From a virus, in IMG/VR virus record IMGVR_UViG_3300014024_000065: a stretch of DNA of 54,562 bases, one strand, 5' to 3'. Below are positions 13,131-36,365 of this stretch, in pieces. Made by a program: the position numbers and the translations under genes. The notes beneath the pieces were generated by a model. It did no database searches, was not told the DNA's origin, and saw only the letters and a program-made list of their open reading frames with translations. The first letter of the stretch is position 1; every line of letters starts with the position of its first letter.

Positions 13131-13535
13131 GTGAGGGCTAAAGAGCTTTTAAACGAATTGCAAAATCTTGATATGGATATTCAGAGCAGGATTGATGAAA
13201 TCAATGAGCTTGAGGCAGGCTTGCTCTCAAGCCCCAAGTGGACTGATGTAAAAGTCCAAGGTGGCCAGACAAGAAAAGTTGATGATGTCTACACCCAGCT
13301 CATCGTGATGAAAGAAGCGATTGAGCAGGACACTAAGGAAGTTATTAACAGGAAACTTGAACTTGGTAGGCTGATTAACAAGCTTAAAAGTCCGAAAAGT
13401 AGGTCTATTCTTAGGATGACTTACATTACCAAGATGTATGTTGATGATATTTGTGATAAGCTAGCTATCAGCAAAAGCTCTTATTACAACATGCGCAGAA
13501 ATGCCGTGGATGAATTAGAGCACATCTTGGAATAA
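13131..13535 (+). CDS. ArpU-family (sigma region-4-like) late transcriptional regulator
   Basis: 134 aa. The C-terminal HTH DICDKLAISKSSYYNMRRNAVDELEHIL and the position immediately upstream of the terminase genes both fit this family. GTG start with a GGAGACAGAG RBS. Confidence 0.7.
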   Translation: MRAKELLNELQNLDMDIQSRIDEINELEAGLLSSPKWTDVKVQGGQTRKVDDVYTQLIVMKEAIEQDTKEVINRKLELGRLINKLKSPKSRSILRMTYITKMYVDDICDKLAISKSSYYNMRRNAVDELEHILE

Positions 13536-13610
13536 TTTGGAATTTTTTGGAATATCTTGAGTTATCTTGAGAGTATCTTGAGAATATGTGCTAATCAAAA
13601 TAATCTTGAT
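13524..13610 (+). repeat. Phased direct repeats (TTGGAAT x3; TATCTTGAG x3 at 10-11-bp spacing; further ATCTTGA-like copies)
   Basis: TTGGAAT at 13527, 13537 and 13547. TATCTTGAG at 13553, 13563 and 13574. ATCTTGG at 13524 and ATCTTGA at 13603. Confidence 0.85.
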
Positions 13611-13629
13611 GTGCACTGTAACGATAATC

Positions 13630-13638
13630 TGTTAGAAT
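13630..13638 (+). promoter_or_regulatory. Extended -10 element TGtTAGAAT upstream of the tRNA-like modules
   Basis: TG at 13630..13631 and TAGAAT at 13633..13638. No good -35 is present, which would fit an activator-dependent late promoter. Confidence 0.4.
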
Positions 13639-13656
13639 GGTAGTATCAAGAATTGA

Positions 13657-13740
13657 AGAGAGGTCTCAGAATTGGTAGATGGTTACCTGTAATGTCAGGG
13701 GGCTGTAATGGCCTTGGAGGTTCGAGCCCTCCCCTCTCAT
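13657..13740 (+). ncRNA. tRNA-like module 1 (type-II/Leu-like architecture, aberrant anticodon arm)
   Basis: T arm GGAGG-TTCGAGC-CCTCC and acceptor GAGAGG/CCTCTC with a terminal A-A mismatch. D loop GAATTGGTAGA and variable arm GGC-TGTAATG-GCC. The anticodon region pairs only as CCTG/CAGG with a 6-nt loop TAATGT. Confidence 0.55.
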
Positions 13741-13745
13741 TTTTT

Positions 13746-13831
13746 GGAAACATAAGGTTTGACTTCTCCATCTCGTTGAAAGTCCTAGGTTTGAGATGGT
13801 TTGGTCGCAGGTTCAAATCCTGCTGTTTCTA
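13746..13831 (+). ncRNA. tRNA-like module 2 (canonical acceptor/T arm, 7-bp stem with 18-nt loop in place of the anticodon arm)
   Basis: Acceptor GGAAACA/TGTTTCT, then T8 A9, and T arm GCAGG-TTCAAAT-CCTGC. The central stem CCATCTC/GAGATGG encloses GTTGAAAGTCCTAGGTTT. Confidence 0.55.
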
Positions 13832-13964
13832 TTATGTCTCTGCGAATAGCTATCGCGATAGAGGTATAGGGCGGTAATTAGATTTAGGCTGATTAACCTG
13901 TAGGACAGAGATAAAGTAGCGCTATATAAGGCTCTGGTGGGGGAGGCACCCACTTACCGCATAC

Positions 13965-13994
13965 GGTCACTCAACGAGTGGCTTTTTATTTTGT
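13965..13994 (+). terminator. Intrinsic terminator immediately upstream of the terS RBS
   Basis: Stem GGTCACTC-AAC-GAGTGGCT (8 bp including 2 G-U pairs) followed by TTTTTATTTT. The terS RBS AAAGGAGG starts at 13997. Confidence 0.6.
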
Positions 13995-14015
13995 CAAAAG
14001 GAGGTAGCCCAGTGA

Positions 14016-14510
14016 GTGGATAAATTAACCCCAAAACAAGAATTGTTTGTCCAAGGGATAATCTCCGGACTATCTCAAAGACAAGCCTATAGGCAGGCTT
14101 ATCCGTCATCTAAAAAATGGCTAGATAGTAGCGTTGACAGCAAAGCAGCCGTCTTACTTCAAAATGTAAAGGTTTTGTCAAGGTATAGAGAACTTCTTAA
14201 ACAGTTCTCTAATATGTCCTTATGGTCCAGAGAACAGGCTTTCAATGAGTATGAATGGCTGAAGAATAAGGCCAGAGCCAGCATTGAGCGAGACGGCATC
14301 AGACAAGCAAATTCTAACGCTTTTCTTTCGGCGTTGGATGGGATGAATAACATGACTTGGAAGGACTTGAAATTGACTGACGATAAAATCAGACAAGAGA
14401 TTGAATTGCTCAAAATCAAAATTGAAAGCAATCAAGGTTCTAAGTCTGACACCAGTCTCATGACTGCCCTTTTGGATGCGGTAAAAGGCGGTGACGAAGT
14501 TGAAGATTGA
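14016..14510 (+). CDS. terS: Terminase small subunit
   Basis: 164 aa. N-terminal MDKLTPKQELFVQGIISGLSQRQAYRQAY is typical of phage small terminases. GTG start 11 nt after AAAGGAGG. Overlaps terL. Confidence 0.8.
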   Translation: MDKLTPKQELFVQGIISGLSQRQAYRQAYPSSKKWLDSSVDSKAAVLLQNVKVLSRYRELLKQFSNMSLWSREQAFNEYEWLKNKARASIERDGIRQANSNAFLSALDGMNNMTWKDLKLTDDKIRQEIELLKIKIESNQGSKSDTSLMTALLDAVKGGDEVED

Positions 14511-36292: not shown

Positions 36293-36310
36293 AAAGGCGG
36301 TAGACGGATT
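36293..36310. repeat. attR core
   Basis: Identical to 1042..1059 and overlaps the 3' end of tRNA-Cys. Confidence 0.8.
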
Positions 36311-36365
36311 TGAACCGACGATCAAGCTTTTGCAGAGCCGTGCCTTACCACTTGGCTATACCGCC
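36295..36365 (-). tRNA. tRNA-Cys (GCA)
   Basis: Minus-strand 71-nt sequence GGCGGTATAGCCAAGTGGTAAGGCACGGCTCTGCAAAAGCTTGATCGTCGGTTCAAATCCGTCTACCGCCT. It has the acceptor stem GGCGGTA/TACCGCC, the anticodon loop CTGCAAA and the T loop TTCAAAT. CCA is not encoded. Confidence 0.85.

Follow-up and report, generated by a model that had tools for sequence, protein, structure and literature searches.

The window analysed here, that is, the whole 54,562-nucleotide (nt) stretch of the IMG/VR virus record IMGVR_UViG_3300014024_000065, carries two tandem tRNA-like RNAs, called module 1 and module 2 below, which retain the acceptor and T arms of a tRNA but have no canonical anticodon arm. They lie in a gap bordered upstream by a gene for a late transcriptional activator of the DUF1492 (LtrB) family (13131-13535, + strand; Pfam PF07374, E=2.6e-47). 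The initial annotation of this DNA had named the upstream regulator ArpU, a name that gives way to DUF1492/LtrB in view of the Pfam match and of published work on the family (PMC3753634). Members of the DUF1492/LtrB family activate transcription of terS and the late genes, and the member encoded by a Streptococcus suis prophage drove terS expression (PMC3753634). Downstream, the gap ends at terS (14016-14510, +; Pfam Terminase_2), which encodes the small terminase, is the first gene of the late operon and is followed by terL and then by an SPP1-type portal gene (Pfam).

Just past the activator gene, a repeat search detected two sets of direct repeats (13527-13588, +), TTGGAAT three times in a 10-nt phase and TATCTTGAG three times in an 11-nt phase, which we regard as putative LtrB binding repeats by analogy with the direct repeats just distal to ltr genes that have been proposed as activator binding sites (PMC3753634). 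The core of the late promoter (13630-13653, +) consists of an extended -10 element, TGTTAGAAT (13630-13638), followed by the conserved GGTAGTATCAAGAA; a -35 element is absent, and a sigma-70 scan returned no -35/-10 pair on the + strand at this promoter. Judging from their sequence, the repeats and the -35-less extended -10 promoter likely constitute the LtrB operator and promoter, and a second -10-like element, TAGTAT, hints at promoter-proximal pausing. Within the conserved promoter motif, TCAAGA is inverted relative to the TCTTGA repeats upstream. Directly 3' of module 2 lies a further structured RNA, designated elem3 (13832-13964, +), and 24 nt upstream of terS the non-coding leader is closed by an intrinsic terminator (13965-13992, +; hairpin 13965-13983), GGUCACUC-AAC-GAGUGGCU plus a U run, which was found by a terminator scan and whose hairpin is kept in homologues. 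The modules had been described as flanked by an extended -10 element and a terminator, in a gap with no credible open reading frame (ORF), and both statements were borne out: the two flanking signals are present, and the two ORFs of the gap (74 amino acids on the + strand and 56 on the - strand) were rejected as protein-coding because the homologues differ by frame-breaking indels of 1, 2, 4 and 20 nt. When the whole 376-nt leader was folded as a single molecule, the minimum free energy (MFE) gave a z-score of only -0.41, which leaves a global structure unsupported.

Module 1 (13657-13740, +) was recognised as a type-II-like tRNA-like RNA from its sequence, its fold and its covariation. The acceptor pairs AGAGAGG (13657-13663) with CCUCUCA (13733-13739) through 6 base pairs (bp) plus an A1-A72 mismatch, and the module ends with a single U (13740). 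The D region is Leu-like, UCA-GAAUUGGUAGA-UGG (13666-13682), with a possible 3-bp stem (U-G, C-G, A-U) around the GAAUUGGUAGA loop, and the anticodon arm is replaced by the hairpin CCUG-UAAUGU-CAGG (13686-13699). A variable-arm hairpin follows, GGCU-GUAAU-GGCC (13701-13713), and then the T arm, GGAGG-UUCGAGC-CCUCC (13716-13732). A repeat search also substantiated the earlier remark that the motif CUGUAAUG recurs in the variable-arm loop, the motif being truly duplicated within the module 1 region.

Module 2 (13746-13831, +; 86 nt), which follows a U5 spacer (13741-13745, +) corresponding to the TTTTT already noted between the modules, is a tRNA-like RNA that lacks a D arm and has phage tRNA-Phe(GAA) as a relative. 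Its acceptor is formed by GGAAACA (13746-13752) and UGUUUCU (13824-13830), followed by a last base, A (13831). There is no D stem, and the place of the D arm is occupied by an unpaired linker (13753-13760) containing an invariant GG. At the anticodon-arm position stands an interrupted 12-bp helix, made of a short helix, GACU/GGUC (13761-13764/13803-13806), and a long one, CCAUCUCG/UGAGAUGG (13768-13775/13792-13799; 8 bp including one G-U), which closes a near-invariant 16-nt loop, UUGAAAGUCCUAGGUU (13776-13791); the T arm is GCAGG-UUCAAAU-CCUGC (13807-13823). The MFE fold of module 2 coincides with the proposed structure (z = -3.8). The long helix substituting for the anticodon arm had been foreseen in the initial annotation, although with dimensions (7 bp around 18 nt) that we revised to 8 bp around 16 nt, and the acceptor helices and perfect 5-bp T stems with textbook T loops that it had given for both modules were correct to the base.

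Like canonical tRNAs, both modules have a 7-bp acceptor (with the A1-A72 mismatch in module 1) that stacks on a T stem of 5 bp closed by a UUCRANY loop, and both depart from these tRNAs in the 5-bp stem and 7-nt loop of the anticodon arm, which is 4 bp and 6 nt in module 1 and the long interrupted hairpin in module 2. CCA is encoded by neither. The frequent G-U pairs in both modules place the RNA on the + strand. An RNA from the reverse strand was disfavoured because many of these pairs would turn into A-C, and because the minus-strand folds are weaker (-25.3 and -22.2 kcal/mol, versus -28.4 and -27.9 kcal/mol on the + strand).

Programs that detect tRNAs and RNA families did not recognise the modules. 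ARAGORN called a single tRNA-Cys in the window (36295-36365), leaving modules 1 and 2 uncalled and reporting no transfer-messenger RNA (tmRNA), and Rfam at gathering thresholds returned the same lone tRNA-Cys and nothing on the modules; these checks, which the initial annotation had recommended, revealed no ordinary tRNA at 13657-13831. In E-value mode, the best Rfam match of module 1 was tRNA-Sec (RF01852), which we rejected because the score, 21.9 bits, fell below the gathering value of 47 and the anticodon region was gapped in the alignment. The best match of module 2 was to the ends of tmRNA (RF00023), at 13.9 bits against a gathering value of 47 and with 39 nt between the aligned termini. 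A mini-tmRNA was discarded in view of this score, of the restriction of the match to the termini, of the identity of pair 3:70 (A-U or G-C, not G3-U70) and of the absence of any ARAGORN tmRNA call. The possibility that two ordinary tRNAs had simply been misfolded at first reading was likewise rejected, both programs being empty there and the sub-threshold matches having gapped or missing anticodon regions. In a Streptococcus oralis locus with the same architecture as the window (L178), ARAGORN and Rfam also called neither module. Rfam gave no match to the conserved 3' domain of the GOLLD RNA (RF02032) in the window, which therefore represents a GOLLD-less version of the locus, and the YrlA (bacterial Y-RNA-like) family was absent among the Rfam matches up to E=10 at 13500-14050, where the neighbours are phage late genes. 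The sole canonical tRNA of the window, tRNA-Cys(GCA) (36295-36365, -; 59.9 bits), lies just past the last long ORF on the phage strand (35254-36000) and probably marks a prophage boundary or attachment site; at the other end of the window, a long minus-strand ORF (1115-2233) could encode an integrase.

The initial annotation had also proposed aligning homologues in search of compensatory base changes, and this approach revealed conservation and covariation in both modules. In a blastn search of phage genomes, about 55 pneumococcal phages carried the promoter and module 1 (93-96% identity) between unrelated flanks, and pattern scans of viral contigs yielded 114 module 1 loci and 23 module 2 loci. 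Module 1 was represented by 38 distinct variants. A MAFFT alignment mis-registered the short ones, and a hand-registered, N-padded alignment was used in its place; since such an alignment leans towards the proposed structure, RNAalifold and controls with slid pairing partners served as checks. Paired cells amounted to 96.4% in the 38 variants, versus 92.1% in column shuffles (none of 500 reached the observed value) and 43-66% with slid partners, and, with pair 1:72 set aside, unpaired cells numbered only 10 of 831. Double changes were found at 6 pairs, namely 3 of the 4 in the variable arm, 2 of the 5 in the T stem and acceptor pair 2:71 (G-C to U-A). The RNAalifold consensus recovered the acceptor, the hairpin, the variable arm and the T arm; the 3-bp D stem, which is invariant, was missing from it.

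The hairpin that stands for the anticodon arm in module 1 has an invariant CCUG/CAGG stem and a variable loop, which reads UAAUGU, UAAUAU, UAAUGC, UAAUAC or UAGUAU when it is 6 nt long and UAAU, AAAA or AAAU in other variants, so that it measures 4 or 6 nt and never 7. This drift in length and sequence indicated that it is not an anticodon loop and that module 1 has no conserved anticodon. The 4-bp/6-nt UAAUGU hairpin first annotated therefore stands as a fold, whereas its interpretation as an odd anticodon loop does not. Module 1 was also 80-96% identical between loci whose adjacent DUF1492 genes share 74-80% DNA identity. One lineage of module 1, present in 6 species-level genomes (L171, L175, L191, L199, L214 and L217) and situated some 100-190 nt past the DUF1492 gene, lacks precisely the 20-nt D arm but has kept the acceptor, both small hairpins and the T arm, yielding a mini-cloverleaf of 60-odd nt. 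Its acceptor and T stems are intact, one copy (L199) having a T-loop change, and all other acceptor or T-arm lesions of module 1 are singletons.

For module 2, 15 distinct variants from three lineages (mitis group, Streptococcus henryi and S. suis) had 98.1% of paired cells, versus 27-47% when partners were slid; 6 of the 8 long-helix pairs were compensated, and RNAalifold returned the fold independently. A T-arm-anchored scan showed that the 16-nt loop is kept in every module-2-type sequence, with only two single-base variants, GAAAAUCC and GAAAGCCC. A pseudoknot between GACU (13761-13764) and the AGUC of the loop was rejected, as these two variants break the pairing without compensation and GACU/GGUC is kept. 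No target complementary to the loop was found in the window except the loop itself. A partial complementarity with elem3 (AACCUGUAGGAC) was dismissed, by inspection, because it is not kept in relatives that combine elem3 with other tRNAs, and the 8-nt complementarity of 13772-13779 to the terminator loop is no more than chance would produce in a region of 521 nt. Positions 13780-13787 of the loop, GAAAGUCC, are identical to what we take to be the conserved GAAAGUCC of the P4 region of bacterial RNase P RNA, possibly by coincidence.

The content of the DUF1492-terS slot was surveyed in 80 loci from genome contigs of many Streptococcus species, chosen by the DUF1492 protein alone to avoid circularity. 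The promoter motif, including GGTAGTATCAAGAA, was present downstream of DUF1492 in 75 of them. At least one module with T arm and acceptor was found in 60, amounting to 119 modules, which ARAGORN divided into 26 canonical tRNAs, 13 'tRNA-???' units with a 2- or 4-nt anticodon and 80 uncalled units (58 distinct sequences); non-canonical modules thus exceed canonical ones by approximately 3 to 1. Module 1 occurred in 20 of the 80 loci, module 2 in 3, elem3 in 20 and GOLLD in 10. In 121 homologous gaps, T-arm-plus-acceptor modules reached a density of 4.0 per kilobase (kb), versus 0.02 per kb in shuffled gaps. In the literature searched we found no prior account of covarying, non-decoding tRNA-like families that outnumber the tRNAs in this slot.

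Among phages, 135 gaps were mosaics in which the promoter is followed by module 1 or a tRNA, a second unit, a third tRNA-like unit or GOLLD, and optionally elem3, and the arrangement of the window was found again in 11 of them. In relatives, the modules are set apart by U-rich spacers of 3-6 nt. The canonical tRNAs of the slot are Ser(GCU), Lys(UUU), Phe(GAA), Tyr(GUA), Arg(UCU) and Trp(CCA); in S. suis phages, the first position is held by tRNA-Ser(GCU) and in one case by tRNA-Tyr(GUA). These tRNAs, and the GOLLD RNA in the same slot, formed a context that the initial annotation had missed.

Several other units of the slot are worth describing. The commonest second unit in pneumococcal phages (L001 1618-1805 and homologues, at least 55 viral loci) is a degenerate tRNA-like element of about 74 nt, GACCUCG...GAGGG-UUUGAUU-CCCUC-AGAGGUU, with repeated AUCACUCAUUAAC motifs upstream. 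Units in the third position (L003 1807-1887; L075, L028 and L121; L222) recur among the loci and were called 'tRNA-???' by ARAGORN, which assigned them an anticodon of 2 nt (aa) or 4 nt (atta); given their score of 40 bits against the tRNA model of Rfam, they are tRNAs with 6- or 8-nt anticodon loops. Upstream of the 5' domain of GOLLD or of the third-position unit lies a conserved motif composed of GACUAC, an A-rich stretch and GCAAGG-UAGUAGUC-GCCUUGC (L003 1745-1805; L165, L170, L176 and others), in which GACUAC is complementary to the UAGUAGUC hairpin loop and may, as read from the sequence, form an H-type pseudoknot.

Few bacterial RNAs of unknown function are as large as GOLLD and ROOL. 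With scores of 245-279 bits, Rfam placed GOLLD (RF02032) in the DUF1492-terS gap of SF39, Javan345, Javan636 and the genomic loci L163, L165 and L207, the positions being 2196-2588 in L002, 758-1149 in L009, 3432-3821 in L163, 354-738 in L160, 3511-3902 in L165 and 3638-4033 in L207, and it occurs in about one locus per 8-10 of related Streptococcus prophages. In L002 it is flanked by tRNAs and by module 1 itself. In S. suis L163 it stands between tRNA-Tyr(GUA) and tRNA-Arg(UCU), the upstream tRNA ending about 3 nt before the GOLLD 5' domain and the downstream one beginning 6 nt past the GOLLD 3' end, and at L160, which belongs to a Streptococcus uberis phage, the distance from that end to the start of the next tRNA is 10 nt. 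In mitis-group phages, the 3' side of GOLLD abuts a remnant consisting of a T arm and a 3' acceptor strand (ACAGGUUCGAGUCCUGUCGUUCCA). Earlier reports had placed GOLLD and ROOL close to phage tRNA islands, GOLLD being encoded in prophages, and in some cases a tRNA or pseudo-tRNA is embedded in the RNA (PMC12286853, PMC12990946, PMC6582537). Those GOLLD/ROOL-associated islands share with our system the DUF1492-terS gap in which GOLLD sits in the six relatives with positions given above, but the window has no GOLLD and its units are not called as tRNAs. The literature searched contained no earlier description of GOLLD in the LtrB late leader, of tRNAs within 3-10 nt of its ends, or of tRNA-like punctuation of GOLLD or ROOL.

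As far as sequence comparison can tell, modules 1 and 2 are most likely tRNA-derived. In several phages, a canonical tRNA-Phe(GAA) occupies the second position of the slot. Module 2 has in common with this tRNA-Phe the acceptor stem (GGGAAUA/UGUUCCC in tRNA-Phe), GGUC, the T arm and a UUGAAG...CCUAGG stretch, and the tRNA-Arg(UCU) downstream of GOLLD in the S. suis prophage is built on the same acceptor/T-arm chassis. The simplest interpretation is that module 2 was once a tRNA-Phe and that its D and anticodon region has been remade as a long hairpin; the CCUAGG palindrome in its loop may be left over from the anticodon stem of tRNA-Phe. This match to tRNA-Phe supplants the earlier likening of the loop to a Ser-UGA anticodon loop. 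The earlier suggestion of decaying phage tRNA genes proved apt for the origin of the modules, decay being only part of the picture.

Module 1 is already present in public records (GenBank KT337356, OK173051, FR671406, KY065473 and others), where it appears as tRNA-OTHER, tRNA-Tyr, a hypothetical protein or a 'transcriptional regulator', and it has been treated as a tyrosine tRNA, a codon-supply gene (PMC10383233). The tRNA-Tyr and tRNA-OTHER records read CUGUAAU as a loop with the anticodon GUA, a reading that leaves only 3 of the 5 stem pairs. None of these four kinds of annotation is supported by our data.

An acceptor stem stacked on a canonical T arm is the only common denominator of the degenerate units, module 1 (with or without its D arm) and module 2 included, and it is by this half that RNase P, RNase Z and the CCA-adding enzyme recognise a tRNA. 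We propose with moderate confidence, on structural grounds, that modules 1 and 2 are non-decoding RNAs whose acceptor/T-arm half would serve as a processing signal for RNase P and RNase Z. As modelled, they present the features to be expected of an element of this type, namely an acceptor/T-arm minihelix, a tRNA-like elbow, which the GG of each module can form by docking on the T loop, no encoded CCA and an adjacent structured RNA. According to this model, the LtrB-dependent late promoter would transcribe the modules as the first elements of a non-coding leader of about 340 nt, and each module would be excised by a cut of RNase P at its 5' end (13657 and 13746) and one of RNase Z after its last base (13740 and 13831). 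Two small tRNA-like RNAs would be released, the 5' end of elem3 and, in relatives, both ends of GOLLD would be set by the same cuts, and the anticodon and D regions would be free for remodelling. A processing role is favoured because the D-arm deletion has spread with acceptor and T stems intact while other lesions remained singletons, because no CCA is encoded and the spacers are short (3-6 nt) and U-rich, and because tRNAs stand 3-10 nt from the ends of GOLLD and the late transcripts of related Ltr-controlled phages undergo processing (PMC3753634). Punctuation by RNase P and RNase Z was one of four readings offered in the initial annotation, and it is the one that these data, indirectly, support best.

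Several observations weigh against this proposal. The cargo is dispensable, as no module was present in 20 of the 80 DUF1492-anchored loci. In 21 of the 38 module 1 variants, and with A-A in the window among them, pair 1:72 does not form, which is unusual for an RNase P substrate, and the 3-bp D stem is invariant and was not predicted by RNAalifold. The aligned sequences are close kin (about 90% column identity) from few lineages, which implies few independent compensatory events. Broken copies also exist, in the form of T-loop chimeras (L048, L174) and internal deletions (L176, L190, L215). Finally, punctuation leaves unexplained why the loop of module 2 is near-invariant while its closing helix has been replaced, and with no GOLLD in the window the benefit of precise cutting there is not evident.

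Some of these observations would also be expected if the modules were evolutionary debris, in other words pseudogenes from a phage tRNA island undergoing recombination, which a permissive leader tolerates and which have no function of their own. The chimeras and deletions, the lineage without the 20-nt D arm and the empty slots agree with such an origin, the canonical tRNAs that occupy these positions with an identical acceptor and T arm fit duplication followed by decay, and a 'pseudo tRNA' inside a mycobacterial GOLLD gene had no detectable expression (PMC6582537). However, debris would not be expected to preserve, through compensatory changes, the pairing of the variable arm, the T stem, the acceptor and the long helix of module 2, to leave so few module 1 cells unpaired outside 1:72, or to be better conserved than the adjacent DUF1492 gene. 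Nor does it account for acceptor and T-arm lesions remaining singletons (the L199 T-loop change excepted) while a stem-sparing lineage has spread, or for non-canonical modules being about three times as numerous as canonical ones. We therefore consider debris an unlikely explanation, albeit one deserving serious weight.

Other explanations assign the modules a function in trans. In the broader form, to which we attach only a tentative and rather low likelihood, the LtrB late leader would be a dedicated platform for selected non-decoding tRNA mimics (about two thirds of its tRNA-shaped modules), either acting in trans, for example with the module 2 loop as decoy or docking site for a tRNA-binding defence or modification factor of the host, or serving as partners or cargo of GOLLD-type RNA cages. 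In a narrower form, the modules would be decoys or sponges that titrate or mislead a tRNA-binding host factor, be it EF-Tu, the CCA-adding enzyme, a modification enzyme or a toxin or defence nuclease directed at tRNAs. The strongest point for decoys is the loop UUGAAAGUCCUAGGUU, near-invariant across mitis-group, S. henryi and S. suis phages despite a rewritten closing helix, which implies a sequence-specific partner; the elbow features (the UUCRANY T loop and the GG) are also kept. The canonical tRNAs of the slot include Lys(UUU) and Tyr(GUA), which are targets of known anticodon nucleases. On the other hand, module 1 has no conserved anticodon-loop sequence, its loops varying in length and sequence, the window offers no complementary target, CCUAGG may be a mere relic of the tRNA-Phe anticodon stem, and we know of no tRNA-Phe-specific defence system. 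The decoy role that the initial annotation had envisaged is not supported for module 1, and for module 2 the evidence points both ways; overall we regard it as improbable.

The leader could also act in cis, its co-transcriptional folding controlling read-through of the terminator before terS, maybe by sensing a tRNA-binding factor. The modules do lie between the promoter and a strong terminator placed 24 nt upstream of terS, and LtrB alone was sufficient for expression of a terS reporter (PMC3753634), so something must permit read-through. Even so, a cis-regulatory role of the modules is very doubtful, since relatives with the same promoter and terS arrangement have ordinary tRNAs in their place or lack them, no alternative pairing between modules and terminator is conserved (the lone 8-nt complement being within chance), and the conserved element beside the terminator is elem3. 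The structured cis-regulatory RNA postulated in the initial annotation accordingly fits elem3 (taken as 13832-13993) better than the modules.

Together with the terminator, the 135 nt past module 2 make up this conserved structured RNA. Its 5' part is an interrupted 14-bp hairpin; next comes a domain in which GCGGUAA/UUACCGC encloses three inner helices, and the terminator is last. Across 8 divergent homologues from mitis-group, S. uberis and Streptococcus parauberis phages, RNAalifold predicted 45 pairs for elem3 plus terminator, 15 of them compensated. No Rfam family matched it (matches up to E=10, 13500-14050), and its immediate upstream neighbour, at the loci inspected, is the last tRNA or tRNA-like unit or a T-arm remnant. 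It could be a read-through or antitermination element or a 5' stabiliser of the terS mRNA, and it may be a more novel object than modules 1 and 2.

Finally, that the modules are working tRNAs with unusual anticodon arms, either tRNA-Tyr(GUA) or frameshift or suppressor tRNAs with 6- or 8-nt loops, has in its favour the tRNA-Tyr and tRNA-OTHER records, the published tyrosine tRNA (PMC10383233), the resemblance of CUGUAAU to a Tyr anticodon loop and the ARAGORN calls with 2- or 4-nt anticodons in neighbouring third-position units, but it is highly improbable given the 3 of 5 stem pairs that CUGUAAU would leave, the tetraloops of orthologues, the empty ARAGORN output and low tRNA-Sec score, the base after the acceptor (mostly U), the frequent mismatch at 1:72, and the missing D arm and 16-nt loop of module 2.

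For the processing role that we favour, the closest functional analogue is the mascRNA-type element of MALAT1. Together with its NEAT1 counterpart MEN-beta, mascRNA represents a non-decoding tRNA-like fold that acts as a signal for RNase P and RNase Z cleavage and sets the end of the neighbouring RNA (PMC8457004). As in our modules, the acceptor and T arm are kept and the anticodon arm is degenerate; in contrast, these elements are eukaryotic and unrelated in sequence, their cleavage has been demonstrated whereas we infer ours (together with transcription of the modules and any benefit to the phage), and the units of the window belong to tandem arrays mixed with real tRNAs. Mitochondrial tRNA punctuation and the RNase P-processed phage RNAs C4 of P1/P7 and CI of P4 are further cases in which tRNA-shaped folds in polycistronic transcripts direct RNase P and RNase Z cuts, which free the neighbouring RNAs; the concept is alike, although the organisms and sequences differ and the cuts in the window are predicted ones. 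The tRNA-like domain of tmRNA resembles module 2 in its acceptor, its T arm, an unpaired GG substituting for the D loop and a long helix at the anticodon-arm position, but module 2 has no G3-U70, tag reading frame or pseudoknots, is only 86 nt long and has a chassis that matches phage tRNA-Phe. The canonical tRNAs of the slot share position, orientation, spacing and the lack of CCA with the modules, and acceptor and T arm with module 2; modules 1 and 2 differ from them in having no 5-bp/7-nt anticodon arm and in being rejected by ARAGORN and Rfam.

These results locate the GOLLD transcription unit of Streptococcus prophages precisely, in the leader between an LtrB-dependent late promoter and terS, and reveal that most tRNA-shaped units of this slot are covarying look-alikes rather than tRNAs. 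For module 1, they also correct a recurrent annotation error in pneumococcal phage genomes. Punctuation of the leader by tRNAs and their look-alikes would provide a testable model for the biogenesis of GOLLD and elem3, and, if trans-acting roles such as those considered above were true, the modules would represent a bacterial-virus counterpart of the eukaryotic tRNA-like non-coding RNAs.

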